Notes under the pieces: model-generated | What the model was told of the DNA's origin: nothing | Database searches by the model: none | The model's input: the letters and a program-made list of their open reading frames with translations, nothing else | Shown here: piece after piece, positions 2,383 through 58,320 of the stretch | Position numbering within the stretch: position 1 is the first letter of the stretch | How the letters are laid out: every line of letters starts with the position of its first letter | Position numbers and translations under genes: made by a program | DNA from: Candidatus Beckwithbacteria bacterium | Lineage (GTDB): Bacteria > Patescibacteriota > Microgenomatia > UBA1400 > UBA1449 | Direction: 5' to 3' | NCBI GenBank assembly: GCA_012797845.1 | Contig: JAAZOH010000016.1 | Span: forward strand, 7,733-71,732 | Length of the DNA: 64,000 nucleotides

Positions 2383-4560
2383 TTACTGATTTAATTTAGC
2401 TAAAAATTCTTCCGCGTTTTTGATGAGAACTTCCCGAGGTTTAGAACCATCAGGAGCTGAAATAGCTCCAGCCGCATAAAGTTGGTCTAGAATCCGAGCA
2501 GCTCGATTATAGCCAATGGAAAGCTTACGCTGCAGCAGTGAAGCTGAAGCTTTATCATAACCGCAAACAATCCGCACTGCTTCTTCAAAATTTTCATCAA
2601 GATCTTCAGTTCCGCCACCTTCTTCACTGGTTCCCCCACCTTTACTACTTTTACCTTTAAATTTGGAAGTGACTTCTTCAGTGTATTGCACTGGTGCTCC
2701 GCTATTTTTCAAGAAGTCGGTCATATTTTTAATATCACCATCAGTGACATATGCTCCTTGAATTCTTCGAGGCTTGGCTTGATCAGGCGGAATAAAGAGC
2801 ATATCTCCCCGACCTAGCAGTTTTTCAGCTCCTGGCGAATCAAGAATTACCCTCGAATCCATCATAGATGAAACTGAAAAAGCAATCCGGGCTGGGATAT
2901 TGGCTTTGATAAGTCCAGTAATAACATCAACCGAAGGTCGTTGGGTCGCTAAGACTAAATGAATACCAGTAGCCCGAGCCATTTGAGCCAGGCGGTTGAT
3001 ACTATCCTCAACATCGGATGGGGCATAGAGCATAATATCAGCCAGTTCATCAATCACAATCAAAATATAAGGCATAGCCTGAAAACCAGACATTTCATTG
3101 TACGATTCAATATTACGAGCTCCGATTTCAGCAAAGGTTTTATAGCGGCTTTCCATTTCGGCAATAGCCCATTTTAAAGCCGAAACTACTTTTTCCGGCT
3201 CCACAATCACTGGGGTTAGCAAGTGAGGAATCCCATTGTAAGTTGATAACTCAACCCGCTTGGGATCAACCAAAATCATTTTGACATCATTCGGCGTAGA
3301 TCTGAATAAAATGGAGCTTAAAATAGTATTAATACAGACTGATTTACCTGAACCAGTTTGTCCAGCAATCAGCATATGCGGCATTTTTGCAATGTCTAAC
3401 AAAACATGTTTTCCAGATACATCCAGCCCTAAACCAACCAGTAATTTGGCTTTATTGGCTTTCATTTCCCCATCCGCCAAAACAGTTTTTAGAGAGACTA
3501 AGGCTGAACTTAAGTTTGGCACTTCAATCCCGACCAAGGGCCTACCAGGAATAGGGGCTTCGATCCGGATTTGGCCGGTTCGGGCCGCTAAAGCCAGAGC
3601 TAAATCATTAGCCAGCGAAGTAATTTTAGTCAGCTTTGTGCCAGTTGCTAGTTGGATAGCATACTGGGTCACAGTTGGACCAGGGCTAAAATCAACTACT
3701 TTAGCCTGGACTCCAAAGCTTTGTAAAGTTTCCTCAATCACCTGAGCATTGCGCTTAATATCTCCCCGCTCGGCTTTACTATTATTGGCTGATAAAAGTG
3801 ACAGCGGTGGTAATCGCCAAACTTGAGTAGTAGCTCCCGGTACTGGCGGTTTAATTTCTCCTTTACCTTCCTCAGGAGTTGATTTAGTCTCATCAGGAGT
3901 AGTTGGAATAGTTTTTTCTTCTTCTTTATCAAGCAGTGATTCTTGCTCCCAAGATTGTTTATCTGTAGAAGCCTGAGCTAGTTTGTCTTCAAATGATAGT
4001 TCTTCCGCTGGCACGGTAAATAAGTGAACAATATTGAATTTAGATAAAACTGCTTTTAAAAATTTATACATATCAGAAAGAGAAACTTCGAAAAAAACCA
4101 TAAAACCAATAATAAAGCCAAAGAGAAAAATAAAAAACGCTCCTAAATTAGAGATCAAAATAGCTAGACTTTGCCAAAGCTCAACCCCTAAAGATCCAGT
4201 TTGCATCATGCTGACAATAGAAATTGTCAGAATAATACTACCCAAAAATAATGTGGGTCGGGAAAACCAAGCTTGAGGGCGAAACAAAATATTGCCTCCA
4301 AAGATAAGAATAACAGGTACAAAAATCATGCCCCAACCCAGTAAGCTTGAAAAAATTCGTCTAATTGCTTCCAGTAAAGCTCCGTTTTGAAAAAACGATA
4401 AAACAATCAGAATAGCTACAAAATAGAAAACAAGGGCCGCAATTGACCGAACCACTTTAGGATTAAGTTGCAGTTCATTTTGCTGCTGCTTCTTGGATTT
4501 TTTTGAGGATGAGCGTTTTTTGCTACGCTTCTTTTTGGTTTTTTTATTTAGTCCTAGCAT
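2383..4560 (-). CDS. ftsK: DNA translocase FtsK/SpoIIIE
   Basis: N-terminal TM helices, Walker A GQTGSGKS, Walker B LIVIDELAD, C-terminal gamma winged-helix (LLQRKLSIGYNRAARILDQL). Poly-Lys N-terminus. Confidence 0.9.
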   Translation of the reverse strand: MLGLNKKTKKKRSKKRSSSKKSKKQQQNELQLNPKVVRSIAALVFYFVAILIVLSFFQNGALLEAIRRIFSSLLGWGMIFVPVILIFGGNILFRPQAWFSRPTLFLGSIILTISIVSMMQTGSLGVELWQSLAILISNLGAFFIFLFGFIIGFMVFFEVSLSDMYKFLKAVLSKFNIVHLFTVPAEELSFEDKLAQASTDKQSWEQESLLDKEEEKTIPTTPDETKSTPEEGKGEIKPPVPGATTQVWRLPPLSLLSANNSKAERGDIKRNAQVIEETLQSFGVQAKVVDFSPGPTVTQYAIQLATGTKLTKITSLANDLALALAARTGQIRIEAPIPGRPLVGIEVPNLSSALVSLKTVLADGEMKANKAKLLVGLGLDVSGKHVLLDIAKMPHMLIAGQTGSGKSVCINTILSSILFRSTPNDVKMILVDPKRVELSTYNGIPHLLTPVIVEPEKVVSALKWAIAEMESRYKTFAEIGARNIESYNEMSGFQAMPYILIVIDELADIMLYAPSDVEDSINRLAQMARATGIHLVLATQRPSVDVITGLIKANIPARIAFSVSSMMDSRVILDSPGAEKLLGRGDMLFIPPDQAKPRRIQGAYVTDGDIKNMTDFLKNSGAPVQYTEEVTSKFKGKSSKGGGTSEEGGGTEDLDENFEEAVRIVCGYDKASASLLQRKLSIGYNRAARILDQLYAAGAISAPDGSKPREVLIKNAEEFLAKLNQ

Positions 4561-5288: not shown

Positions 5289-6965
5289 TTAACTTTTTAC
5301 CAACGTTATCAGCACCAATGGTTCTCGCTGGGTTTCTAAAAACACAAATTTTTCCAGTTCTTCGGTGACTTCATCTCGCTTATCTTTCCAATCTCTGATT
5401 TGCATGCCAGCTAGCAGGTGTTTTTGAGTTTCGTCTGCGATAGCTTCTAAGAGTTCCTGTGATTGTCGGGCAAAGACAAAACCTCGAGTAATGACTTCTG
5501 GTCGGCCTTTAATTTGGTTTTTATTTTGATCAACTGGAATGGCAATGACCATCATACCGCTTTGGGACATTTTTTTGCGGTCAGACAATACTAAAGGTCC
5601 CACATCGCCAATTCCCAAACCATCAACAATAATAGTTTTGAGTTTAATTTTGTTATCAACCCAGATTTTATCTCGGCTAATACCGGCTATCTCTCCATCA
5701 TTAAGTAGTAAAACTTGCTCATCTCGCCAACCCATACCAGTTGCTAGCAACCGGTACTGGGTCATATGCCGGAAAGTTCCCCCGATTGGAATGGTATATT
5801 TCGGCTTTGTTAAAGTTAGCAATAGCCGCAATTCATCAGCTGAAGCATGACCAGACACATGTAAAGTATCTTGGACTTCACGGTAAGACACGGTGGCTCC
5901 TAATTTAGCTAAATTATCCACTGCCCGATACGCATTACGTTCGTTACCTGGAATTGGATCAGCACTAAAGACTACATGATCACCAGTTTTAATAGAAACT
6001 AGCTGATGTTGATTGGTGGCAATTCGCGCTAAAGTGGAACCTATTTGTCCCTGACTGCCAGCCACAATCAAACACAGTTGATTATCTTTAAACTGTTTGA
6101 TCCGACGCTTATTGATAACTACTTTTTCAGGAATTTGTAAAAAGCCAAGCTGTTGAGAAATGCGGATATTTTCTTCAACCGATCGACCGATAAAGGCAAT
6201 TTTGCGGTGATGTTCTACGGCTGCATCAATTGCTTGTTGAATTCGGTGAATATTGGAGGACATCGTGGTCACAATGACTTTACCTTTAACATCTCTGATT
6301 TCCCGACTTAAATTTTCACCCACCTTACTTTCCGACAAAGTGTAACCTTCATTTTCAATCCGTAAACAATCTGATAACAAAGCTAAAACGCCTTTATGGC
6401 CATAGTAGGCAATTTTTTGGACATCAGGTCGATGACCATCAATTGGAGTCCAGTCAAATTTAAAATCACTACCATGATAAATAACTCCTTCTGGAGTCGT
6501 AATAGCTAAGTGCTTGGTATCAGGCACTGAGTGGGTAATGGCAACTGGGTCAATTCCAAAGCTGCCTAATTGTAAAATTTGATCCCGGGGAAAGGTTTGG
6601 ATTTGGGTTTTTAAACCAAATTCTTTAAAATTTTCTTGGGCAAAGCCAGCTGTTAAGGGGCTGGCAAAAACCGGAATATCCATATTAAGCTGTGGCAAAA
6701 TATAGGGCAGTCCGGCAATATGGTCATCATGACCGTGAGTTAAAACGATACCAACAATCGAGTTTTCTTTGCCTTGCAAATAAGAAATGTCGGGGACAAG
6801 TAAATCAGCTCCCAACATTTCTTCTTCTGGAAAGCCAATGCCGCAGTCAACAATCAAGCGCTCTACATTTTGGCCTTCACCATATTCATAGACAAACATG
6901 TTATTGGTCACATGACCAATACCTCCAAGGGGGATAATTCTTAGCATAAGTTTAGTATGTGTCAT
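5289..6965 (-). CDS. rnj: Ribonuclease J (metallo-beta-lactamase/beta-CASP)
   Basis: HGHDDHIAGLPYIL motif, beta-CASP and C-terminal domain. Typical RNase J length of 558 aa. Confidence 0.9.
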   Translation of the reverse strand: MTHTKLMLRIIPLGGIGHVTNNMFVYEYGEGQNVERLIVDCGIGFPEEEMLGADLLVPDISYLQGKENSIVGIVLTHGHDDHIAGLPYILPQLNMDIPVFASPLTAGFAQENFKEFGLKTQIQTFPRDQILQLGSFGIDPVAITHSVPDTKHLAITTPEGVIYHGSDFKFDWTPIDGHRPDVQKIAYYGHKGVLALLSDCLRIENEGYTLSESKVGENLSREIRDVKGKVIVTTMSSNIHRIQQAIDAAVEHHRKIAFIGRSVEENIRISQQLGFLQIPEKVVINKRRIKQFKDNQLCLIVAGSQGQIGSTLARIATNQHQLVSIKTGDHVVFSADPIPGNERNAYRAVDNLAKLGATVSYREVQDTLHVSGHASADELRLLLTLTKPKYTIPIGGTFRHMTQYRLLATGMGWRDEQVLLLNDGEIAGISRDKIWVDNKIKLKTIIVDGLGIGDVGPLVLSDRKKMSQSGMMVIAIPVDQNKNQIKGRPEVITRGFVFARQSQELLEAIADETQKHLLAGMQIRDWKDKRDEVTEELEKFVFLETQREPLVLITLVKS

Positions 6966-7020
6966 CCTGAACGCAGTGAAGGATCTTAAAAGATTCTTCG
7001 CTTTGCTCAGAATGACACAT
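6957..7020 (-). promoter_or_regulatory. Second copy of the nested palindromic leader element; overlaps the rnj start codon
   Basis: ATGTGTCATCCTGAACGCAGTGAAGGATCTTAAAAGATTCTTCGCTTTGCTCAGAATGACACAT. Outer and inner inverted repeats are homologous to those at 394-484. Confidence 0.45.
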
Positions 7021-7102: not shown

Positions 7103-8188
7103 TTAATAGTCTGGCAAAAAGCCTTTAATATTGGTTTCGTCTAAATGGAAAGTATCTCCTTTGCCAGCTACCACCAAACGGGCTACTCTGTGGACAATTC
7201 GGCGAATAGTTCTTTCTAATGTTCGGATACCGGAATCAAAGCCAAGTGGCCGGACAATTTTTGTCCATAGCTGTTCATCAATATGAACTTGGTCTGGAGT
7301 AAGCCCTGCTTCTTCTATAATTTTTGGCAAAATATATTGTTTACCAATCACAATTTTTTCATCATCAGTATAGGAAGGCATATCAATTACTTCCATTCTG
7401 TCCAGTACTGCCGTAGCTACATTACGGGTATTGTTGGCCGTAGCAATAAATAGCACATCAGATAAATCAAAAGGGTAATCAAGGTAGTGATCAATAAAAC
7501 GGTGATTTTGACCCGGATCTAAAATCTCAACTAGTACCCCCATAATATCGTTGCGGGCTTCTTCAGAAACCCGGTCAATTTCATCAAGCAGAATCACGGG
7601 GTTGCGACTTTGGGCTTGGCGGAGAGCTTTAATAATCTTGCCTGGTTCATTATCAGCATGAAGCCGTGACTGGCCTCGAAGATCAAGAGCCGAGCCCATA
7701 CCACCAAACGGGATCCGGGCATATTTACGACCCATGGCTTCAGATAGTGCTGGTCCAAAAGTAGTTTTCCCAGTTCCGACTAGACCCACTAAAAATAAAA
7801 TTGGTGCCCGGCTGACTTTGTCTTTGTCTCTATTTAATTTCAAAACTGCCATGTACTCCAAAATCCGGTTTTTAACATGATCCATACCGTAGTGGTGTTT
7901 ATCCATAATGTCTTTAGCCCGCTCCAAGTCAAGATTATCTTCAGTTTGATAATTCCAAGGTAGTGATAACACCCATTCTACATAGTGAGAAATTTTTTCA
8001 TATTCTTCACTATAACCACCAAAACGGGCCATTCGTTTGAGCCGTACTAGCATTTCGCGAATTTTATCTTTGAGTTCGTCTGGGATATCAGCTTGTTCGA
8101 CTCTTTCTCGCAGCTGATCAACTTCCTGAAATAGCTCGTCAAAAGCCGCTTGGGTTTGGTTATAAGGAGTTTGGGCAGTTGGTTCCAT
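7103..8188 (-). CDS. Lon-like AAA+ ATPase module lacking the S16 protease domain
   Basis: Aligns with the Lon ATPase region (GxVGTGKT Walker A, LLDEIDRVS Walker B, sensor/lid ending ...HLDETNIKGFLPDY, equivalent to the E. coli Lon residues just before the protease domain). The ORF stops there, followed by a 137-nt non-coding spacer and then rnj. Confidence 0.7.
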   Translation of the reverse strand: MEPTAQTPYNQTQAAFDELFQEVDQLRERVEQADIPDELKDKIREMLVRLKRMARFGGYSEEYEKISHYVEWVLSLPWNYQTEDNLDLERAKDIMDKHHYGMDHVKNRILEYMAVLKLNRDKDKVSRAPILFLVGLVGTGKTTFGPALSEAMGRKYARIPFGGMGSALDLRGQSRLHADNEPGKIIKALRQAQSRNPVILLDEIDRVSEEARNDIMGVLVEILDPGQNHRFIDHYLDYPFDLSDVLFIATANNTRNVATAVLDRMEVIDMPSYTDDEKIVIGKQYILPKIIEEAGLTPDQVHIDEQLWTKIVRPLGFDSGIRTLERTIRRIVHRVARLVVAGKGDTFHLDETNIKGFLPDY

Positions 8189-8193
8189 AGCTA

Positions 8194-8655
8194 CTATTTC
8201 ATTTGTTGTACATTACTTTTCTCACCAATTGTTTTCATAATCCTCTGGCTGCTTTCACTATCGATTCCTGACCATACAGTTTGCGCATCTTCCTGGTCGA
8301 TTACTATATTTCCTACTCCAAATATTTTTTGTAAAAAAGTTTGATTAAAGTCAATGTTGGTAATTTTTGAAAATGGGATAGTGGTTGAAAAAGTACTAAA
8401 AACACCTTTTTTTAAATTCAAGGCACTTGCATCTAAGGCGTATGTCAGATTTTTGTATTCTAGTTTCGCTAAAACATACATAAGCACAATTGGTCCAAAT
8501 AAAAAAAGTAGAGAAATTACTATTCCTATTGCATTTAATTTGTCGGCTGAAAATACTACTAAGGCAAAAAACCCCAAAATCAAACCAATTATAATTCCAA
8601 TAATTAATTTGTTAATAATTCGATATAGTAGTGCTTTACTGTTAAAGTGTTCCAT
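8194..8655 (-). CDS. Membrane protein with bacterial PH (bPH_2/YdbT-like) domain
   Basis: Two N-terminal TM helices followed by a ~80-aa domain with the bPH_2 pattern. Confidence 0.4.
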   Translation of the reverse strand: MEHFNSKALLYRIINKLIIGIIIGLILGFFALVVFSADKLNAIGIVISLLFLFGPIVLMYVLAKLEYKNLTYALDASALNLKKGVFSTFSTTIPFSKITNIDFNQTFLQKIFGVGNIVIDQEDAQTVWSGIDSESSQRIMKTIGEKSNVQQMK

Positions 8656-8721
8656 ATTTTCAAGAAATTTATAATCTCTTTTAGTGTAATTAATTACAGC
8701 TTAAAACTCAATAATAGCCTT

Positions 8722-10194
8722 TTAATGTTCCCAATAGTAATCTCTCCACAGCTCAACCGATAGAGGAATAAATTTTTGAGTTTTATTATCAAAGCCATAG
8801 ATTTCTCGACAGTTAAGTTTATTCCATTCACATGAACCGGCCAGTGTTGCATATATTTCCGGATAACGACAATATACGTTCTCACCTGCTTCATTTTTAC
8901 AAGCTAGCTCAAGCGGTTCTTTTTGGGCCTTTGTCGCCCAAAAGTCAATGGATTTTTGCGGGTTTTCATAAATTCCAAACCATAATCCGGCCTGAAATAG
9001 ACTGGGCTTGGATAGACTACTTATATTTACAATGTATGCCAAACCATGATGGACTAAAAGCAAAATACAAACTCCTATTACTATTTGTTTAACTTGCCGA
9101 TCAACCCATTTTTTATTAAAAATCCAATCCCAGATTAGAGTGAATAAAGTATAAATGCCAACTAAAACTCCAGTGTTACGCCGCATCCCGGGCAAACCGC
9201 TGGGATCACTTGTCATGCTTGATAAAAACAAACTTAAGACCATCACTATAATTGCTGAAAAAATAATGAGACGTTTCTTATCTTTTTGCTGCCAAACCTG
9301 GTAACAAGTGTAAGTAACAAAACCTAAACTGACCAAGGGAAATAGGTAGGAAAAATCACCAGCCGCCACTTCATAGTAATAGCTGGTACCTTTACTCAGT
9401 AAATCCGAAATCAAACCAATAACGTTGTTCCATATATGGGTTAAAGAAAAACTCAGCTGACCTGCTCCCCGAAATAAGCCTCCTCCAGTTTTGGGATCAT
9501 GCCAAAGTACGTTTTTGTTGGTAACTAAACTAATTGCTAATAAAAATGGAATTAAACCACCAATCACTAAAGCTGATAACTGAACCAGTTTTTTTTGCCC
9601 TAATCTGTAAACAATCCAAAAGCCTAAAACAGGAATATAAATAATAAAGGCCGGGTACGAAAGCCAGGTTATCATTGCTATCACTCCAATTCCCAGCAGC
9701 GCTAGCACTGATTGCCACGTTTTTTGAGGCGAGACGTATAAAAGTAGCCAAATTAAAATCGGTAAAACTTGCAGCTCTATTCCAAACTGGGCTTCAAGGC
9801 AGCTGAAAAAAATTAAAGTGGGTGATAAGCCAATTACCAGTAGCGGCAACCAGGCTTTTAGACCTAGTAATTTTTTAAAAACCGCAGCCAAGCTCAAAAG
9901 TGAAAAAAAGGCTATACCCAAACGCAGATACTTGGCAGCAAAAAGGCTGAAGCCAAAGAGTTTATATATACCCAGCAGTGGCAAATACCAACCCAGGTTA
10001 CTAGAAACCCCATCATAGACTAAGCCTTTTTCCAACCAAAAAACGTTGCGGATCGACTCAGCCAACTCTTCATATCTAATTTGATTAAATGAACTAAAGG
10101 TAAAAATAGCTTGCAGTACAAACAGCAGGATCGGTAAAATCCAGTAGCCAATTTCCAAAAGTTCGGGATCAATGTTTGCTTTTTTGCTTTTCAT
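8722..10194 (-). CDS. GT-C fold membrane glycosyltransferase (PMT_2/ArnT-like) with Cys-rich C-terminal domain
   Basis: Around 11 TM helices with an acidic motif in the first loop (RYEELAES). Cys-rich periplasmic C-terminus. Confidence 0.45.
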   Translation of the reverse strand: MKSKKANIDPELLEIGYWILPILLFVLQAIFTFSSFNQIRYEELAESIRNVFWLEKGLVYDGVSSNLGWYLPLLGIYKLFGFSLFAAKYLRLGIAFFSLLSLAAVFKKLLGLKAWLPLLVIGLSPTLIFFSCLEAQFGIELQVLPILIWLLLYVSPQKTWQSVLALLGIGVIAMITWLSYPAFIIYIPVLGFWIVYRLGQKKLVQLSALVIGGLIPFLLAISLVTNKNVLWHDPKTGGGLFRGAGQLSFSLTHIWNNVIGLISDLLSKGTSYYYEVAAGDFSYLFPLVSLGFVTYTCYQVWQQKDKKRLIIFSAIIVMVLSLFLSSMTSDPSGLPGMRRNTGVLVGIYTLFTLIWDWIFNKKWVDRQVKQIVIGVCILLLVHHGLAYIVNISSLSKPSLFQAGLWFGIYENPQKSIDFWATKAQKEPLELACKNEAGENVYCRYPEIYATLAGSCEWNKLNCREIYGFDNKTQKFIPLSVELWRDYYWEH

Positions 10195-12224
10195 TAGTAA
10201 ATTTTTAAATCATTAGTCAGCTCACTGAGCATAATTTCCTGATCTGGTTCTAGTATAGCTGGTAATCTCAGTTGAACATGACGCTCAATTTCCTGGCCAA
10301 ACAAATCATAGGTCGTAAACGCTAAACTCTGGTATTTTTGCTCAAAAGGACTGACTACGTAGCAATCCTGGGAATTTTTTAAAAACAGAACGTAAATTTG
10401 CTTGGGGTAATTTTTGACCGTGGCTAGTTGCAAATTTTTGTTCAAACTTTGCCAATCACAAAGCTTTGGTTGAACTGCCAGTTTATGTAGATCCAAAATT
10501 TGAAGATTATTATTTTCCCAAATTACCAGGTTTTGATATAGGTTTTTATTGGCAGCAATCATGGCTTGTTGCTCTCTGGTTGCCAGCAAATCTTGGTGGA
10601 TAATAACGTAATCAACGGTCAAAGCTTTGAGCTTAGTCAAAGCCGCTTCATCCAAGTTTGCTTCCAAGTTTTCCAGCAGTTTAATATGGTCTGCCGGCAA
10701 ATAGCCGCTGTTGCCGTTGACGGTTTTTTCACCTGTTTGAGTTAGCCAATTTAAGTAATAGTTACTTTCTGAACCCAAGTCATGGATTTTGGTAGGGTAA
10801 TGCAAAACACTCTTGTTGCGTAAAAACTGCAGTTGTTTGTTCGGTAACTGCTTAAGGATATATGAGTTGTCCTGATAGGTTTTAGTGTTCCAGTTCTCCA
10901 AAAGCAGTAAACTAACTACCGCCACGATAAATCCTACTTTCATGACTTTGGCTGGTAAGTACTGCAAAATTATTTTTAGACCATAACCAACTCCTAAAGC
11001 AAACGGTAAGTAAAACAAAAACTGGAAACGGCTAGTAACTCTGATTCCTGAAAGCAAAGGTATAATTTTGCGCAGGTAAAAAAACGGCAGGGGCAGAGCT
11101 GTGCTGGCAAAGCTGTTCCACCACTGACTATACGGCCCAAAGGTCAGGATAAAAGCTAGGCCCAAAACCAGACCAAAAGCTATGTAGGTAGTCTTGCTTT
11201 TAAAGCTAAGCTGTTTAAATTTCCCCAGACTAACTACGAAGGCAATACCAAAAAGTAACATTGGCATAAGGTTTAAAAACATGGTGTGTTCTTCATAGTT
11301 AAAAATACCGTTTTGGTCTTTAGGTGCCCGATACGGGTCCAGCTTTTGAGCTAAGCTGCCGTAGAGCCAGTTTTGGGGATGAGGACTGATCCAATCAATT
11401 AATCTTGCTGAGAAAAAGATGTTTTGCCCTATGGTCCGCTCGATCATTTCCTGGCGGCTAAACTGACCATACGGTTGGTAAATGTAAAAAATTATTGGTA
11501 AAGACAAAAGTATCAGCAAGCTGGTAGTTCCTAGTTTTATTAGGTATTTTTTATCTTTCCATTTTTTCCACAGCAAAGGCGCAATAAATATTGGCAAGAC
11601 TAGCAGGCTAAAACTAAAAAAATATACTGCCGTAAAGCTGCTCAAAATCAAAGTCAGGGTAAAAACTCCTGACCGCTTCCAGCTCGGTTTTTGAATGTAT
11701 TTGTAAGCAGTTAAAAATAGCAAAGGCAGCAAAGCCCTATTGGTAAAATCCAAGTGCTGCGGAAAGTGGGCGTAAAAAAGAGGATTAAAGGTATAAACCA
11801 AACTGGCAATTCCACTGGCAACTTTACTTTTTAAAAAGTACACAAAGGTAACATAGGCTGCCAGCAACGTGCCCACTATAGACACAAATTGCACAAGATT
11901 CATAGCCGTACCTAAGCTGGTAACCAAAGGGTATATGGGCAGCAGGAGCAAACCGTAAAAGAGCCGGTGGTCAGAGTAAGCTAGGGTTAGCGGTTGGGGA
12001 TAAAATTGGTAGCCATTAAAAAAATCAGTCTGGTGAAAAATTTTACCTGTTTTAATAGCGTTTTGCACATACCAGGAAATTGAAGCACTCAAAACGTAAT
12101 CGCCATCATCAGTGTAGTAGCTGAAAATGTGGGTTGAAAAGTTCCAGGTAAAAATGATCGTAACTACAATGGCCAAAACAATTAGAAGTGTGTAATTGGC
12201 AAGTGGCTGAGCTGTCAATTTCAT
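10194..12224 (-). CDS. Large polytopic membrane protein, possible glycosyltransferase (YfhO/PMT-like)
   Basis: 676 aa with more than 12 predicted TM helices and a YYTDDGDY loop motif. Translationally coupled to its neighbours. Confidence 0.35.
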   Translation of the reverse strand: MKLTAQPLANYTLLIVLAIVVTIIFTWNFSTHIFSYYTDDGDYVLSASISWYVQNAIKTGKIFHQTDFFNGYQFYPQPLTLAYSDHRLFYGLLLLPIYPLVTSLGTAMNLVQFVSIVGTLLAAYVTFVYFLKSKVASGIASLVYTFNPLFYAHFPQHLDFTNRALLPLLFLTAYKYIQKPSWKRSGVFTLTLILSSFTAVYFFSFSLLVLPIFIAPLLWKKWKDKKYLIKLGTTSLLILLSLPIIFYIYQPYGQFSRQEMIERTIGQNIFFSARLIDWISPHPQNWLYGSLAQKLDPYRAPKDQNGIFNYEEHTMFLNLMPMLLFGIAFVVSLGKFKQLSFKSKTTYIAFGLVLGLAFILTFGPYSQWWNSFASTALPLPFFYLRKIIPLLSGIRVTSRFQFLFYLPFALGVGYGLKIILQYLPAKVMKVGFIVAVVSLLLLENWNTKTYQDNSYILKQLPNKQLQFLRNKSVLHYPTKIHDLGSESNYYLNWLTQTGEKTVNGNSGYLPADHIKLLENLEANLDEAALTKLKALTVDYVIIHQDLLATREQQAMIAANKNLYQNLVIWENNNLQILDLHKLAVQPKLCDWQSLNKNLQLATVKNYPKQIYVLFLKNSQDCYVVSPFEQKYQSLAFTTYDLFGQEIERHVQLRLPAILEPDQEIMLSELTNDLKIY

Positions 12225-12865
12225 TTTATGATAGTAAGCATGTTATTTAAGCCAAATTGAAAATAGTGGTGCGCAGCTTTTTTTTGATACTCCTTAGGGA
12301 CCAAGTTGAGTAGTGACTTTCTATCAAAGTACTGTTTATGTTCGGCAATCTCTCTTCGGGAAACCAACCCCACCCTGGCTAAAAACTCTAAATAAGGCTG
12401 TAGGGTTTTGGAAGGGGCAGTAAAAATCAGTTTGCCTCCTGGTTTTAGCACCCGAAAACTTTCTGCCAGTAAGTTTTCAGGATTATCAATATGCTCTAAA
12501 AATGCTAGGCCAACTACGTAGTCAAAAGTACTAGTTTTAAACGGCAACTTGCCGTTCAATTTTTGTTTGATAACTTTAACTTGTTTATTAGTATTTTTTA
12601 CTTGTACTAAAGGATCAATTCCCACATATTTACCAATAATATAATTGTGATTTTGTAGCCAAGTAAACAGCTGGCAAGTTGGCCCACAACCTAAATCAAG
12701 TAAAGCTATAGCCTCATCTTGCTTTATTTCATTTGAGGCTTTGCGAAACCGGAAATAACTCAAGATATACTCTGAAATTGGTTTATCCAGCATACACTTA
12801 TTTTTCTTACTGTTGATATTTTGGTAGCAATATTTGCTCAAGACGAGCAGCCACCGTACTATCAT
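12221..12865 (-). CDS. Class I SAM-dependent methyltransferase
   Basis: LDLGCGPT motif I and VLKPGGKLIF motif; overlaps flanking genes (operon). Confidence 0.6.
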   Translation of the reverse strand: MIVRWLLVLSKYCYQNINSKKNKCMLDKPISEYILSYFRFRKASNEIKQDEAIALLDLGCGPTCQLFTWLQNHNYIIGKYVGIDPLVQVKNTNKQVKVIKQKLNGKLPFKTSTFDYVVGLAFLEHIDNPENLLAESFRVLKPGGKLIFTAPSKTLQPYLEFLARVGLVSRREIAEHKQYFDRKSLLNLVPKEYQKKAAHHYFQFGLNNMLTIIK

Positions 12866-14363
12866 ACGCCTTTAAAACTTCCAGTTGGACCTGGCTTTCT
12901 TCGATTTTACCGCGCATGGCCAAAATTTGAATCAAATTAGCCCGAGCCGCCACATCCGAAGAGTTAGTTTCTAACGCTTTAGCAAACTCGTTTTCAGCTC
13001 CTTCCCACAATCTTTTTTGCGCTAAATACTCCCCTAGCTTTTGGTGCAAGTGTTGAGGGTTTTTAAAAACATAGACATAGGCTCTAAGCTGCGGGTAAAA
13101 AGGCAGACTTTGGTACTGGGCAATCTGGGGTTCGAGCTCTTTTTTTGTATACACATAAGTTGGCCCATAATCGCCAGCAATCACCTGTTTGGCTTTAACG
13201 AAACTGAAAAATGAATAGGCAAAAAGCATGTTAGCAATTTGGATGGTAATAAAAATAAAGATGATAAAACTCTGCCATAACTTTGATTTATTAAACTGGA
13301 GGATGTTTTTAAAAGTCAAAGCTAAAAACAAATAAATAAATGGACTTAAGATGACAAAATAGTACATATAAGCAGGTAGTCTCAAAATAAAGTACAAAAC
13401 CGGCACCAAACCAACAATCAGCAGCAGCCAATGCTGTTTTTTATCTTTATAAAGAAGATAAGCTCCCAAAAGAGCCAAAATAAAACTGAGCAAAAATATC
13501 CCACTTATATAGGCAACAACTGGGTACTGCTGTAAAAAGAGCTGATAATCCTGTCCCAGCACATCAGTAAAATTGAGTCCTGTCGCAAACTGCCATGGCC
13601 GAATCAAGTTGGCCAGCTGAAACTGTTTGGGCAGTTTGAGATACTCCCCAAAAGCTAAACAATCCCGACAAAATGGTTGGGAATTTATATTGTAAAAAAA
13701 TAATGGCAAAGCCGGGATAATTCCTAGAGCAAAACCAAGTCCAGCTTGTTGGTAGCCTGGTTTTACTTTGTAGTAGAAAAAAATCCCTCCAATAATTAAT
13801 AGTAAATATAGCCCGGAAAAGTGCAATTGGGTAAGTAATGCCAGGCATAAAAATAACCACAAGTACGCTTTTTTGTTTGGCTTTTTTAAGATTTGAAGTA
13901 AAAAATAGAGAATGGGTAAGACTAAAATGAGAACCAGATCCGGATTCCAGATTTTACGGGAAAATAAAATACTCCATGGTGAGCTGGCCATCCAAACTGA
14001 AGCTACGATTGCCACCAACTTGCCATAATATTTTCTCAGCAGTAAATAAAATAAAACTACTAAAGCCGAGTTAATAAGAGCTATTAAAAAACTGACAAAC
14101 ACCGGGCTACTTGAAAACAAGCTAAGGATCGTAATTATAAAGTAGGATAATGGTGGGTACAGAATCCCAATACTGGAAACTCCGGAATTACTGGCAATAA
14201 ATGGTTTTTGGTAAAAAGAAGCCGCTGAAAGCATGGCCAGGGCTTCGTCGGCTTTAAATTCAATTAGAGATAGGTTAGTCAAGCGAAAAGCTGCTGCCAA
14301 AATGAAAATAAAGCTCGCCCAAAACCATGTATTTTGCCAGAAAGAATCTTTTACTTTTTTCAC
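12807..14363 (-). CDS. GT39/GT83-family (PMT_2/ArnT-like) membrane glycosyltransferase with C-terminal TPR repeats
   Basis: N-terminal polytopic region with FKADEAL acidic loop motif; C-terminal TPR-like helices. Confidence 0.5.
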   Translation of the reverse strand: MKKVKDSFWQNTWFWASFIFILAAAFRLTNLSLIEFKADEALAMLSAASFYQKPFIASNSGVSSIGILYPPLSYFIITILSLFSSSPVFVSFLIALINSALVVLFYLLLRKYYGKLVAIVASVWMASSPWSILFSRKIWNPDLVLILVLPILYFLLQILKKPNKKAYLWLFLCLALLTQLHFSGLYLLLIIGGIFFYYKVKPGYQQAGLGFALGIIPALPLFFYNINSQPFCRDCLAFGEYLKLPKQFQLANLIRPWQFATGLNFTDVLGQDYQLFLQQYPVVAYISGIFLLSFILALLGAYLLYKDKKQHWLLLIVGLVPVLYFILRLPAYMYYFVILSPFIYLFLALTFKNILQFNKSKLWQSFIIFIFITIQIANMLFAYSFFSFVKAKQVIAGDYGPTYVYTKKELEPQIAQYQSLPFYPQLRAYVYVFKNPQHLHQKLGEYLAQKRLWEGAENEFAKALETNSSDVAARANLIQILAMRGKIEESQVQLEVLKAYDSTVAARLEQILLPKYQQ

Positions 14364-14423
14364 TTCTTTATTCTGGCATGAGGAAACAGACAGAGCAAGT
14401 TGAGACTACCTGCTCCGACTAAT

Positions 14424-15362
14424 TTATAGAGAAGTTTTATTATCAAACATTTCTTTTGACTTTTGAAAGTAATGCAACATTTTTTTCTCTTGAGCTTTCG
14501 GATACGGATACTCACATTTTTCAGCTACCACTCTTGCAAGAGATGTAAAAACTTTGACTAGTTTAAAAAATGCATTCCATACATCCTTTGTATTGGCTCC
14601 AGCAAATGTTTCTTTAATATTATTCCAAGTCACATTATCAAGATATTTTGGAAATAATCTTCCATGAACGTTGGTATTAACTGTCCAATTATGTTGACTG
14701 CCTATGTACCATTCAATCATTTTTTCAAAATGACTAAAACGTAAATCAACCTCAAACATATAGTTTGTATAGAATAAATCTTCCCGATATAAATATTTGG
14801 GAATATAGGTAGCATCCCAGAAAAAAGCATTTACCATCTCTAAAAATTCTTGCTGAGTTGGTTTCTGGATAAGATGCTTCGTTTTAGTTGCTTTTGGAAA
14901 ATTTTTTGTAAAACCATCTTTGTCAATAATTACCAAATAACCCAAATCGTAATCAAAAGGAGGTGTGTGGGTATCAGTAGTAATTTGGAAATCAATCCTA
15001 GTTCGGTTTTCAAAAATAACTAATCTGGTTAGCCAATTTTCTCCAAATTCGCTTTCTGGCTTTAAAGGCCATTTAACTAAGATCTTACCAAAAAAAGGTA
15101 ACCAATCATCATTGCGGAAATCATCTAGAGAGTTTACATAAACGACCACATCGTAATCGGAGAATTGATCAACAGTTGCATTTGTGTTATCACTCCGTGA
15201 ACTAGTCAAAACCACCGCTCTGACAACATCATTAAACTTTGCCCATTTTCTAAGTTGATTGACTACTTTATCTGAATTCATGAGAAAAGTATACCAAAAG
15301 TTCAAAAAATAGGAATATAGCTTTGTCGGCATAAAGAAATAGGCTTTAATAGTTTTAAACAA
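14424..15362 (-). CDS. ANT(6)/AadK-family nucleotidyltransferase (aminoglycoside 6-adenylyltransferase-like); true start probably M28 (coordinate 15281)
   Basis: Clear collinear similarity to B. subtilis AadK: RAVVLTSSRSDN ~ RIRLVTLEGSRTN, FSDYDVVVYV ~ FQDYDISYFV, DDWLPFFGKILV ~ DQWLEIFGKRIM, ENWLTRLVIFENRTRIDFQI. Confidence 0.6.
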   Translation of the reverse strand: MFKTIKAYFFMPTKLYSYFLNFWYTFLMNSDKVVNQLRKWAKFNDVVRAVVLTSSRSDNTNATVDQFSDYDVVVYVNSLDDFRNDDWLPFFGKILVKWPLKPESEFGENWLTRLVIFENRTRIDFQITTDTHTPPFDYDLGYLVIIDKDGFTKNFPKATKTKHLIQKPTQQEFLEMVNAFFWDATYIPKYLYREDLFYTNYMFEVDLRFSHFEKMIEWYIGSQHNWTVNTNVHGRLFPKYLDNVTWNNIKETFAGANTKDVWNAFFKLVKVFTSLARVVAEKCEYPYPKAQEKKMLHYFQKSKEMFDNKTSL

Positions 15363-15520: not shown

Positions 15521-18016
15521 TTACCGGTCATTCCAATCAGCCATGGTTTTAGGCGTAGAAGTGGTTTTTTCCCGTCTACTACTACTTTGATTTGAGTAGC
15601 GGTTTTGTGAAAAATCACGGCGTTCACCACTTCGTTGATCTCTTCGACCAAAATCACGGCGATTACCACCGGAACGGAATCCGCCCCGATCGCTACCACC
15701 AGATCTAAAACCACCTCGATCACTGCCGCCTGACCTAAAGCCTCCACCAGAACGACCACCACGATCGCCTCGGTCGCCGCCGCCATTACCATTTCGCTGT
15801 TTAGCTTTTTCAATATCTTCTCCAAACAGCATTGATAATCTCACTCTACCCATTTCGTCCATATCATCAACTCGGACTTTGACCTTATCTCCTTCAGCTA
15901 CTACCTGATGAGGATCAGACACATAGTCGGCTGACATTTTAGATACATGGACTAGACCTTCCCGTCCGGGCAAATACTCTACAAAAGCTCCAAAATCAGT
16001 GATCTTAACTACAGTAGCAGCTTCAAAAACTTCACCAACCTGGATTTCGCGGGTAATACCTTCAATCCAGTCGGCGGCTTTTTGGACTGCTTCTGGGTCA
16101 ACGGCAGTAACTACCACTCGACCTTCATCGTTGATATCAACTTCAGCTCCGGTAGTTTCAATGATGTTACGGATGATCTTGCCACCTGAACCAATAACTT
16201 CGCCAATTTGTTCCTTTTTGATGTGTAAAACTTTGATCTTGGGTGCAAATTGAGAAACTTGCTGCCGAGGTTCGGCAATAATTTTAGCCATTTCATCCAG
16301 AATAAAGAGTCTGGCTTTTTTAGCTGCATCCAAAGCTTTGGTCAAAAGCTCGGTAGTTACCCCAGTGACTTTGATATCCATTTGGATAGCGGTAATACCA
16401 TCTCTAGTACCAGTCACTTTAAAATCCATATCACCAATATGATCTTCTAGACCTTGAATATCGGTTAAAACCACATATTCGCCTTCAGTAATTGGTTTAT
16501 TCTCGTCTTTAACCATCAGACCCATAGCAATGCCGGCTACCGGTTTTTTGATAGGTACTCCGGCATCCATTAGAGATAAGGTTGAACCACAGGTCGAAGC
16601 CATGGAGGTTGAACCATTGGAAGATACACATTCTGAAACCACTCGAATCGCATAAGGAAAGTCATCTTCATCTGGTAAAACCGGAATTAAAGCCCGTTCA
16701 GCCAAAGCCCCATGCCCAATTTCCCTACGGGAAGGGGAACCAATCCGGCCAGTTTCACCAACCGAGTAAGGAGGCATATTGTAGTGATGAATGTAGCGTT
16801 TTTGGATTTCCTGATCCATCAACTCAATAGTTTGACCAAAACTGGGTGAACCCAGAGTAGTTAAGGTTAAAGCTTGGGTTTCACCTCGTTTAAACATCCC
16901 GCTACCATGAGTCCGGGGGATCATCCCAACATCAATAGTTAAAGGCCTAATTTGATCCATCTTACGACCATCTAGTCTCACTTGAGTATCAATGATTTTA
17001 TTTCGAGCCGCTTGTTTAAAGAGTTTGTCTAAATAATCTTTTAGCTCATTTTTGCGGCTATCAGGGTAAGTTTCATGAATCGTTTCCGCAATTTCATACA
17101 GAGGTTCTTTATTGATCTTGCCAGCAGCTTCAGATTTAAGCAGCTCTTCAATAACTGGTTTGGCCTGTTTTTGCAGTTCATCAGTAATTGCTTTATCCAA
17201 AGGTTCAGATTCTGCTAGCTCCATTCTGGGTTTGCCTACTTCTTTTACCAGCTCTTCAATAGCTGTAATAATTTCTAGATTTTGGGTTTTAGCAAAATCT
17301 AAAGCTCCTACCATTTGGTCTTCAGAAACTTCTTTAGCCCCAGCTTCAACCATTACGATGGCATCTTTAGAAGAAGACACAATCAGATCCATAGCTGAGC
17401 TTTCCCGTTCTTCATAGGTTGGATATGCCAAGTATTTACCATCTTTATCCATACCAACTCGAATACCGCCAATAGGTCCATTCCAGGGTAGACCGGAAAT
17501 TGATAGGGCAGCTGAAACTGCACAAATACTTAAAACATCAACTTCATTTTGCTCATCAGTAGATAGAGGAGTAATTACTACTTGAACCTCATTACTAAAA
17601 TTATGAGCAAATAAGGGCCGGATGGAGCGGTCAATGACTCGACCAGTTAAAATTGATTCATCAGAAGGTCGGCCTTCGCGTTTAACCCAACGGGAACCTT
17701 TGATTTTTCCACCAGCATAAAGTTTTTCTTGAAACTCAACTTGCAGGGGAAAATAGCCTAAATCTTCACGAGCTCCACCACCTACTACTGTTGCTAGTAC
17801 CATAGAATCACCGATCCGAGCAACCACAGCAGCAGTAGCTTGACCAGCAAAGCGGCCAATTTCAAAGGTAATTTCCTTACCCATAATTGTGGCTTTTTTA
17901 GTCACAAATTCATTTGTTTTGTTCATAACAATTTGCTTATTGTATCTTGGAGAAAATAGTTGAGAAGAAGTAACAATAAACAGTCGTGAAGGTTTATTCT
18001 TATTCCCTCTCAACAT
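15521..18016 (-). CDS. pnp: Polynucleotide phosphorylase with a ~90-aa Arg/Gly-rich (RGG/FRSGG repeat) C-terminal tail; probable true start MNKTNEF at 17926
   Basis: Two RNase PH domains, KH (IGEVIGSGGKIIRNI) and S1 domains. The tail reads GGGDRGDRGGRSGGGFRSGGSDRGGFRSGGSDRGGFRSGG... Confidence 0.9.
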   Translation of the reverse strand: MLRGNKNKPSRLFIVTSSQLFSPRYNKQIVMNKTNEFVTKKATIMGKEITFEIGRFAGQATAAVVARIGDSMVLATVVGGGAREDLGYFPLQVEFQEKLYAGGKIKGSRWVKREGRPSDESILTGRVIDRSIRPLFAHNFSNEVQVVITPLSTDEQNEVDVLSICAVSAALSISGLPWNGPIGGIRVGMDKDGKYLAYPTYEERESSAMDLIVSSSKDAIVMVEAGAKEVSEDQMVGALDFAKTQNLEIITAIEELVKEVGKPRMELAESEPLDKAITDELQKQAKPVIEELLKSEAAGKINKEPLYEIAETIHETYPDSRKNELKDYLDKLFKQAARNKIIDTQVRLDGRKMDQIRPLTIDVGMIPRTHGSGMFKRGETQALTLTTLGSPSFGQTIELMDQEIQKRYIHHYNMPPYSVGETGRIGSPSRREIGHGALAERALIPVLPDEDDFPYAIRVVSECVSSNGSTSMASTCGSTLSLMDAGVPIKKPVAGIAMGLMVKDENKPITEGEYVVLTDIQGLEDHIGDMDFKVTGTRDGITAIQMDIKVTGVTTELLTKALDAAKKARLFILDEMAKIIAEPRQQVSQFAPKIKVLHIKKEQIGEVIGSGGKIIRNIIETTGAEVDINDEGRVVVTAVDPEAVQKAADWIEGITREIQVGEVFEAATVVKITDFGAFVEYLPGREGLVHVSKMSADYVSDPHQVVAEGDKVKVRVDDMDEMGRVRLSMLFGEDIEKAKQRNGNGGGDRGDRGGRSGGGFRSGGSDRGGFRSGGSDRGGFRSGGNRRDFGRRDQRSGERRDFSQNRYSNQSSSRREKTTSTPKTMADWNDR

Positions 18017-58248: not shown

Positions 58249-58320
58249 TGGAATCGGAAGGACTCGAACCTTCAACCACCAAGGTATAAGCTTGGAGCTC
58301 TACCATTGAGCTACGATTCC
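58249..58320 (-). tRNA. tRNA with anticodon UAU (tRNA-Ile2-like, reads AUA)
   Basis: Cloverleaf folded by hand: acceptor GGAATCG/CGATTCC, D-arm GCTC-AATGGTA-GAGC, anticodon arm CCAAG-CTTATAC-CTTGG, T-arm GAAGG-TTCGAGT-CCTTC. 72 nt, CCA not encoded. Confidence 0.7.

Follow-up and report, generated by a model that had tools for sequence, protein, structure and literature searches.

A stand-alone LonA-type AAA+ ATPase without a protease domain in a Candidatus Beckwithbacteria genome and its relatives in Patescibacteria

Introduction

According to the current classification, every Lon protein carries, on a single chain, first an ATPase domain and then a protease domain (PMC9569914). In LonA (MEROPS S16 subfamily A, with Escherichia coli Lon, Bacillus subtilis LonA and human LONP1) the chain also includes a LON/PUA N-domain and a long coiled coil, and its domain scheme comprises an NTD3H bundle and a HI(CC) subdomain (PMC9569914). 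The other described types likewise carry a protease domain. In archaeal LonB the AAA+ module is interrupted by a membrane anchor and the protease is of the B type, LonBA is devoid of the LonA N-region (PMC9569914, PMC3391209, PMC13069640), and LonC, for example of Meiothermus taiwanensis, has retained the protease while its ATPase is dead (PMC3391209, PMC13069640). Here we describe lonAAA, a gene of a Candidatus Beckwithbacteria bacterium (assembly GCA_012797845.1, contig JAAZOH010000016.1, positions 7,733 to 71,732; this whole stretch of 64,000 nucleotides is hereafter called the window). The gene encodes only an ATPase motor of the LonA type, composed of the NTD3H bundle, the alpha/beta subdomain and the lid, and no protease domain.

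The family to which lonAAA belongs is large and conserved, and it breaks the rule that ATPase and protease share one Lon chain. It amounts to a natural experiment on a Lon motor without proteolysis and bears on the debated chaperone function of Lon. The gene is furthermore widespread in the ultra-small Patescibacteria, whose genomes are reduced, so that a gene that has been kept is likely to matter. No established principle is overturned by these findings. We found no description of the family in the literature on Lon in the Candidate Phyla Radiation, Patescibacteria or Microgenomates, or in that on protease-less Lon, as far as the incomplete searchable literature reaches.

Results and Discussion

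Domain architecture of LonAAA

In a Pfam search the product of lonAAA (Table 1) matched AAA (residues 132-268, E 1.4e-16) and Lon_lid (residues 292-343, E 1.6e-08) and no other family of substance; neither the protease family Lon_C (PF05362) nor the LON N-domain (PF02190) was found. Among the NCBIfam models, 'lon' (TIGR00763) aligned with residues 22-342 over positions 253-567 of its 795 positions. The score of 332.9 bits is below the curated whole-protein cut-off of 608 bits, as is the score for NF008053 (262.5 versus 891 bits), and no LonB model was among the NCBIfam matches. All strong matches to solved structures were LonA (E 1e-77 to 1e-64), with B. subtilis 3m6a at the top (E 2e-77). In a tblastn comparison, residues 244-576 of E. 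coli Lon corresponded to window positions 8143-7145 with 38% identity.

LonAAA is collinear with residues about 244-579 of LonA, a range that covers the three-helix bundle, the alpha/beta subdomain of the AAA+ module and the lid. Residues 9-75 match the end of the LonA coiled coil and the NTD3H part of the LonA-specific HI(CC) subdomain. An AlphaFold model built from a 30-sequence family alignment (predicted local distance difference test, pLDDT, 87.4; predicted template modelling score, pTM, 0.81) comprises three N-terminal helices followed by the alpha/beta subdomain and the lid. It superimposes on LonA AAA+ modules with query-normalised template modelling (TM) scores of 0.78-0.86, and on the E. 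coli AAA+ fragment 6n2i with a target-normalised TM score of 0.88. This fragment (residues about 235-584 of E. coli Lon) aligns with residues 17-343 of LonAAA and has near-identical boundaries. It is, however, an engineered truncation, whereas LonAAA is the product of a natural gene that is under selection and has signatures of its own.

Both ends of the protein can be placed on E. coli Lon. The alignment starts at residue about 240, which leaves out the PUA-like N-domain and the greater part of the coiled coil. The C-terminal residues NIKGFLPDY pair with the linker NLHDYLGVQ, which stands immediately ahead of the protease domain, and the last residue is equivalent to E. coli residue about 579. 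The first-pass annotation of this DNA, made from the sequence alone, had proposed a stand-alone Lon ATPase module that is collinear with the Lon AAA+ module including the helical lid, ends at the S16 boundary and lacks most of the Lon N-domain. The domain searches, the 3m6a and 6n2i matches, the model superposition and the position of both termini bear out this description and further assign the module to the LonA type.

The first-pass annotation had also stated that no open reading frame (ORF) for a protease domain follows, and this was confirmed in several ways. A tblastn search of the 64-kb window with the S16 domain and the N-domain of E. coli Lon gave only noise (E >= 0.4). Profile hidden Markov models (HMMs) for the S16 domain, the N-domain and the AAA+ module were built from E. 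coli Lon and 80 LonA relatives of a Woesebacterial LonA and run against every six-frame ORF of at least 50 amino acids. The single AAA+ match in the window was the lonAAA ORF itself, and no S16 domain or N-domain was found in any frame of the window and 78 other loci. When tblastn and the custom HMMs were applied to 81 related loci, S16 matches were limited to complete LonA genes (loci L043, L054 and L060), and no peptidase gene was kept beside lonAAA across these loci. The next gene downstream of lonAAA in the window encodes RNase J.

Compared with LonA, LonAAA shares the NTD3H bundle, the alpha/beta subdomain and the lid at 37-41% identity and a TM score of about 0.8, and it has kept Walker A and B, sensor 1, the Arg finger, sensor 2 and the pre-sensor-1 hairpin region. 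It differs in having neither the LON/PUA N-domain nor the long coiled coil nor the S16 Ser-Lys protease domain, in its Walker A (GLVG versus GPPG) and in both pore loops, and it falls in a separate clade. As a LonA protease it would thus be recognizable by its A-type module and NTD3H bundle, but not by an S16 domain, an N-domain with long coiled coil, the equivalog cut-off or the aromatic pore-loop motif RRTY[IV]G. Neither the membrane anchor nor the B-type protease of LonB is present.

ATPase motifs, pore loops and C-terminal tail

The residues needed for ATP binding, hydrolysis and signalling between subunits are all in place in LonAAA, and we therefore expect an active ATPase from the sequence. 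Lys141 of Walker A, Asp202 and Glu203 of Walker B, Asn252 and Asn253 of sensor 1, Arg264 (the Arg finger) and Arg322 (sensor 2) are invariant in 30 diverse family members. The Walker A motif of the family reads GL[VAQ]GxGKT[TS], where LonA has GPPGVGKTS. Between Walker A (residues 135-143) and Walker B (residues 198-206) there is no insertion, and the spacing is collinear with LonA. LonAAA therefore presents the reverse of LonC: in LonC the protease is kept and the ATPase is dead and carries a helical-hairpin insertion, whereas LonAAA combines a live-looking ATPase, with its Walker A Lys, Walker B Asp-Glu pair, sensors and Arg finger present and invariant, with the loss of the protease domain. 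LonC, like LonB and LonBA, belongs to the same superfamily and is a precedent for a Lon relative that has dropped one of two activities and is partly a chaperone.

The pore loops have diverged from those of LonA and are unlike those of any Lon characterised so far. In pore-loop 1 the family has LRGQSRLH[PA]D[NAS]EPG (QSRLHADNE in the window's protein) in place of the LonA sequence IRGHRRTY[IV]G[AS]MPG, which means that the RTY[IV]G[AS]M stretch of LonA is replaced by an acidic RLH[PA]DNE. In pore-loop 2, VSEEARxDI stands against MSSD[WFM]RGDP of LonA, and the aromatic or hydrophobic residue (Trp, Phe or Met) has been lost. The changed loop 1 is itself conserved: the His was found in 120 of 120 close homologs, within QSRLH in 115 and within QSKLH in the other 5. 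In more distant protease-less clades F, R, N, E, Q or S stands at the position of the LonA Tyr, and the loop still ends in the acidic stretch [PL]D[AN]EPG. The window's protein accordingly carries the whole signature of the family, namely a length of about 350 amino acids, AAA and Lon_lid as the only domains, GL[VAQ]GxGKT[TS], and a pore-loop 1 that ends in [PL][DE]x[EQ]PG without the LonA Tyr.

To our knowledge, all AAA+ unfoldases that have been studied use an aromatic pore-loop residue. This aromatic paddle is not kept across the LonAAA family, which argues against classical processive threading as the shared mechanism. In LonA itself, Tyr397 of pore-loop 1 and Trp431 of pore-loop 2 touch the translocating substrate and are needed for degradation (PMC8503904). 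On the basis of these alignments, the family is probably not a classical processive polypeptide threader.

A further family feature is a fixed C-terminus with the motif [FY]LPx[YW]. Of the 120 homologs, 104 end in an aromatic residue, and the C-terminal aromatic is absent from several clades. LonA has no aromatic residue at the position that matches the C-terminal residue of LonAAA. The tail could be a docking or capping motif.

Conservation and distribution of the family

In a search among 5.8 billion proteins, each of the 120 best homologs was 347-375 amino acids long with AAA and Lon_lid as its only domains. Those with a named source came from Beckwithbacteria or the 'Patescibacteria group' and were annotated as 'AAA family ATPase' or, wrongly, as 'ATP-dependent Lon protease'; the latter name, which the Joint Genome Institute gives to many members of the family, is incorrect for them. 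A scan of one genome per GTDB species recovered relatives in at least 587 species genomes, the named ones including Beckwith-, Woese-, Collier-, Gottesman-, Ames-, Chisholm- and Shapirobacteria, Kazan and others. The window's protein is 60-76% identical to the family members listed. In a representative library at 50% identity, members reach down to about 39% identity and vary from 343 to 669 amino acids; the extra length of the longer ones consists of low-complexity tails rich in Q, P and S, and no fusion to a Pfam domain was found in them.

The ratio of nonsynonymous to synonymous substitutions (dN/dS) of orthologous pairs was 0.02-0.09, and an alignment of 30 members with 60-75% identity to the query held 84 invariant columns. 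The family has so far been found almost only in Patescibacteria and is under strong purifying selection. The gene in the window is an ordinary member of this unstudied family.

Many GTDB records that contain the Patescibacterial gene block (L004, L006, L007, L018, L021, L044, L079 and others) are titled 'uncultured Pseudomonadales', 'Gammaproteobacteria', 'Bathyarchaeia archaeon' or 'Spirochaetia'. They are probably mislabelled or contaminated bins.

Relationship to LonA

A canonical LonA of 812-824 amino acids, with N-domain, RRTYVGAMPG pore loop and S16 domain, is encoded 7-9 kb from lonAAA in four related loci (L043, L054, L060 and L208). In at least some Woesebacteria-like genomes the two genes thus coexist as paralogs and are not the halves of a split Lon. 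LonA occurs among Patescibacteria, but there is a gap in the identities of the relatives of the Woesebacterial LonA: about 33 clusters have at least 60% identity to it and the remainder at most 56%. In one of the four loci, of Woesebacteria (L054:820-3328), the LonA beside an intact lonAAA consists of two overlapping ORFs, with S16 and AAA in one frame and the N-domain in another, which could reflect a sequencing frameshift or decay of LonA.

In order to place the family relative to LonA, a neighbour-joining tree of the AAA+ module was calculated (65 sequences, 337 columns, 100 bootstraps). The protease-less proteins formed one group outside all sampled LonA in 100 of 100 bootstraps, and the LonA of Patescibacteria formed a clade inside LonA in 99 of 100. 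Of the phylogeny that the first-pass annotation had called for, the comparison with LonA has thereby been made, in a tree that contains neither LonB nor LonC. The tree is rough, but its topology indicates that the protease-less family is an old separate lineage rather than a recent truncation of a resident lon gene.

The search of the representative library was topped by putative giant Lon-like proteins of 990-3865 amino acids (P0121-P0128, P0144 and P0153). They have an S16 domain beside two to four Lon-type AAA+ stretches, the number of Walker A motifs being two or three. The pore loop HNRTW occurs in several of them and in further multi-module matches lower in the list.

Proposed function and alternative explanations

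Taken together, we judge it rather probable that LonAAA is a functional stand-alone ATPase of the LonA type that acts independently of a protease as a remodeller or in a chaperone-like manner. In this old family the substrate-binding domain at the N-terminus would have been lost, and so would the S16 protease domain. The invariant Arg finger acts in trans and implies a composite active site at the subunit interface, from which we infer that LonAAA assembles into a ring or spiral oligomer. The oligomer would spend ATP to bind, remodel or hold client macromolecules without degrading them, as a chaperone or as an assembly or disassembly factor. Passage through the pore would probably not be classical threading, given an acidic loop 1 in which the aromatic residue is not conserved. 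The first-pass annotation had suggested an unfoldase or chaperone remnant. A chaperone-like ATPase is the part of this suggestion that agrees best with the alignments, whereas the unfoldase part has to be qualified, the pore aromatic being His in this clade and non-aromatic in sister clades.

Several points weigh against this interpretation. Laboratory-made AAA+ fragments of LonA are poor at forming oligomers when the protease domain is lacking, and the formation of a ring by LonAAA is therefore not guaranteed. The His at the position of the pore-loop Tyr, or the Phe of some clades, could still grip a polypeptide, so that threading could occur in this clade. The fixed aromatic C-terminus resembles docking tails and would favour a partner ring. 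For the window's own genome, the absence of LonA and of an orphan S16 peptidase holds for the 64 kb and up to 10 kb of flanks that were read. Finally, fast evolution once the domains had been lost could exaggerate the deep placement in a neighbour-joining tree that has no LonB or LonC outgroup.

We also posit, as a much more tentative and in sum improbable extension, that LonAAA represents a new functional class. It would be a protease-free Lon motor that forms a ring with an acidic, non-aromatic pore and that uses ATP to chaperone or remodel clients of a basic or ribonucleoprotein nature, perhaps the RNA-decay machinery of PNPase and RNase J, and it would be the sole Lon-type protein in most Microgenomates. 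If this were true, the long-debated chaperone activity of Lon would have been separated from proteolysis in nature.

A rather unlikely alternative is a two-component AAA+ protease, in which LonAAA would be the unfoldase ring for a peptidase encoded elsewhere and would dock to it via its aromatic C-terminal tail. The candidate partners are an orphan S16 protein, ClpP, HslV or a PDZ-S16 enzyme similar to YlbL, with ClpX/ClpP and HslU/HslV as the models. HslU and proteasomal ATPases dock by C-terminal tails, a precedent that gives weight to the [FY]LPx[YW] terminus and its prevalent final aromatic, as does the fact that LonAAA ends precisely where LonA runs on into its protease domain. Like ClpX and HslU of the HCLR clade, LonAAA is a single AAA+ module without a fused protease and may dock by a conserved terminal motif. 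In ClpX and HslU, however, the aromatic pore loops are conserved and the peptidase partners are known and often adjacent. For LonAAA no linked peptidase was conserved in the 81 loci, where S16 matches belonged to complete LonA only, and neither the threading aromatic of the pore loop nor the C-terminal aromatic extends to the whole family. Distant members stand beside unrelated genes, one of them near M16 and M23 peptidases and two near groES/groEL. The earlier proposal that the module is the partner of a separately encoded protease accordingly finds little support here, all the more as a complete LonA coexists with lonAAA in four related loci.

The gene neighbourhood gives rise to a second alternative, which we regard as improbable to about the same degree: LonAAA would assemble, remodel or regulate an RNA-decay complex or ribonucleoprotein clients together with polynucleotide phosphorylase (PNPase) and/or RNase J, with which it would be co-transcribed. 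Genes were called and clustered in the 81 related loci and the window, and Pfam families were assigned to them. In Microgenomates the gene is part of the block nusA - infB - (unknown, about 300 amino acids) - rpsO - pnp - lonAAA - (udg in many loci) - rnj - ftsK - HTH_25/RodZ-like gene. In 48 of 68 loci a PNPase gene is found at most three genes upstream of lonAAA; in 39 loci the two are immediate neighbours, separated by a median of 53 nucleotides. RNase J is encoded no more than four genes downstream of lonAAA in 56 of 68 loci and is the immediate neighbour in 27, where the median gap is 20 nucleotides. Several lonAAA-rnj junctions overlap or nearly do so (-7 to +3 nucleotides), which suggests translational coupling. 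The order is still recognizable in a member that is only 39% identical and has pnp upstream and ftsK downstream, and an acidic loop in the pore would favour basic clients.

This linkage hints at a role in RNA metabolism, but it may also be inherited housekeeping synteny, as the entire block from nusA, infB, rpsO and pnp to rnj and ftsK is conserved. Actinobacteria and Firmicutes, too, have a similar pnp...rnj-ftsK order. Other clades of the family are found in unrelated contexts, as described above for the distant members, and an acidic pore is a poor fit for the binding of RNA itself. In the window, moreover, six unrelated genes lie between pnp and lonAAA, and lonAAA and rnj are set apart by a palindromic insertion. 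For the protease-independent ATPase that we favour, clients should first be sought in the machinery of RNA decay and translation housekeeping, given that lonAAA of Microgenomates lies between the genes for PNPase and RNase J.

Two further explanations question the gene itself. That LonAAA is a decaying remnant of LonA, a pseudogene or a non-functional leftover once the protease domain had been lost, is very improbable: two of the three LonA regions are indeed absent, the score stays under the NCBIfam Lon cut-off and both pore loops are changed, but the low dN/dS, the invariant ATPase residues and alignment columns, the constant length in at least 120 clusters and at least 587 species, and the conservation of the altered pore loop itself all speak against decay, and the remnant of the first-pass annotation is thus not supported. 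An artefact, in which a frameshift or chimeric join had stripped the protease domain from an ordinary lon gene, is an a priori possibility in any metagenome-assembled genome and nothing more, and we give it next to no probability, since two independent assemblies of the same sample have the identical 361-residue ORF with the same neighbours, no S16-like sequence occurs downstream or in any frame of the 64 kb, and hundreds of orthologs stop at the same residue.

A component of anti-phage defence, such as a Lon-like or AAA+ protein of the BrxL type, was also considered and rejected. PADLOC returned only generic AAA matches for LonAAA (at most 27.5 bits), and the neighbourhood is made up of housekeeping genes and is not a defence island.

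Features of the window

The window has kept the order pnp, lonAAA, rnj, ftsK on the minus strand (Table 1). Between pnp and lonAAA, which are adjacent in most relatives, there is an insertion of about 7.2 kb (8194-15362) with six genes. These encode an adenylyltransferase-like protein, a PMT_2 glycosyltransferase, a methyltransferase, two large membrane proteins without a Pfam match and a bPH_2 membrane protein. The last of these was rejected as a conserved partner of LonAAA, because it is confined to the window's lineage and absent from the other loci. In many relatives a gene of the uracil-DNA glycosylase family (udg, about 210 amino acids, cluster c11; loci L020-L082, e.g. L053 about 11100-11740) stands between lonAAA and rnj. 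It follows lonAAA directly in 18 loci, and there is none at that position in the window.

Table 1. Features of lonAAA and its surroundings in the window (aa, amino acids; nt, nucleotides; dG, folding free energy)
Feature	Position	Strand	Basis or remark
lonAAA, stand-alone LonA-type AAA+ ATPase, 361 aa	7103..8188	-	ATG at 8188, stop 7103-7105
N-terminal three-helix region, aa 9-75	7964..8164	-	alignment with LonA 253-330; AlphaFold helices H9-32, H37-53, H59-75
AAA+ alpha/beta subdomain, aa 88-270	7379..7927	-	Pfam AAA match; secondary structure of model
AAA+ alpha (lid) subdomain, aa 271-349	7142..7378	-	Pfam Lon_lid match; PDB alpha-domain matches 4git, 1x37, 1qzm
Walker A GLVGTGKTT, aa 135-143 (Lys141)	7760..7786	-	alignment
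Pore-loop 1 variant LRGQSRLHADNEPG, aa 170-183	7640..7681	-	His177 in place of LonA Tyr398; acidic loop
Walker B VILLDEIDR, aa 198-206 (Asp202, Glu203 invariant)	7571..7597	-	alignment
Pore-loop 2 variant VSEEARNDI, aa 207-215	7544..7570	-	Ala211 where LonA has Trp, Phe or Met
Sensor-1 region FIATANNT, aa 247-254 (Asn252, Asn253 invariant)	7427..7450	-	alignment
Arg-finger region VLDRMEV, aa 261-267 (Arg264 invariant, = E. coli Arg484)	7388..7408	-	alignment
Sensor-2 region GIRTLER, aa 320-326 (Arg322 invariant, = E. coli Arg542)	7211..7231	-	alignment
C-terminus NIKGFLPDY	7106..7132	-	family motif [FY]LPx[YW] at very end (7106-7120)
bPH_2-domain membrane protein, 153 aa	8194..8655	-	stops 5 nt upstream of lonAAA; lineage-specific
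pnp (PNPase)	15521..18016	-	ancestral direct upstream neighbour; split from lonAAA by six-gene insertion
rnj (RNase J)	5289..6965	-	conserved downstream neighbour; true start may be ATG at 6947
ftsK	2383..4560	-	conserved block member downstream of rnj; gene calls and clustering
Imperfect palindrome/hairpin, 64 nt (31+31 nt)	6957..7020	-	81% complementary, dG -33.7 kcal/mol, z = -8.7

Palindrome between lonAAA and rnj

The spacer between lonAAA and rnj measures 137 nucleotides up to the first ATG of RNase J (6965) and 155 nucleotides if translation starts at the second ATG (6947). The first-pass annotation had described the 137 nucleotides as non-coding and occupied by a structured element. 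The palindrome is real (Table 1), but the signal is confined to its 64 nucleotides, the full 137-nucleotide spacer folding with a z of only -1.7, and its 3' arm overlaps the first RNase J ATG, which lies inside the stem. Read from the second ATG, RNase J begins with MLRIIPLGG, compared with MIRIIPLGG in the closest ortholog, and this similarity suggests that the second ATG may be the start.

Since a T-tail is missing, the palindrome does not qualify as a canonical intrinsic terminator. In a promoter scan, promoter-like sites were no more frequent than in shuffled sequence, and no Rfam family matched the spacer. The sole Rfam match in the window at gathering threshold was a tRNA gene (58249-58320, minus strand).

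Within the window the palindrome occurs once. Its arm motif, GTCATYCTGARCNNAGYGAAGRATC, was found in at least 120 metagenome stretches from many environments (among them L084-L163), often as inverted pairs, and also once after ftsK in a related locus (L047, 19292-19316). The palindrome is therefore one copy among many of a palindromic repeat with a wide distribution and not specific to lonAAA; a REP-like (repetitive extragenic palindromic), a MITE-like (miniature inverted-repeat transposable element) or a regulatory repeat are the candidate types. Most other loci have almost no spacer between lonAAA and rnj, and the locus of the closest ortholog (L003) has a different, longer hairpin in the same spacer (11158-11264; dG -55.5, z = -8.9). 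In one of the metagenome stretches (L091:383-539) the 25-nucleotide arm motif is present in five tandem copies with a period of 33 nucleotides, an array-like arrangement that is unlike the usual inverted pair.

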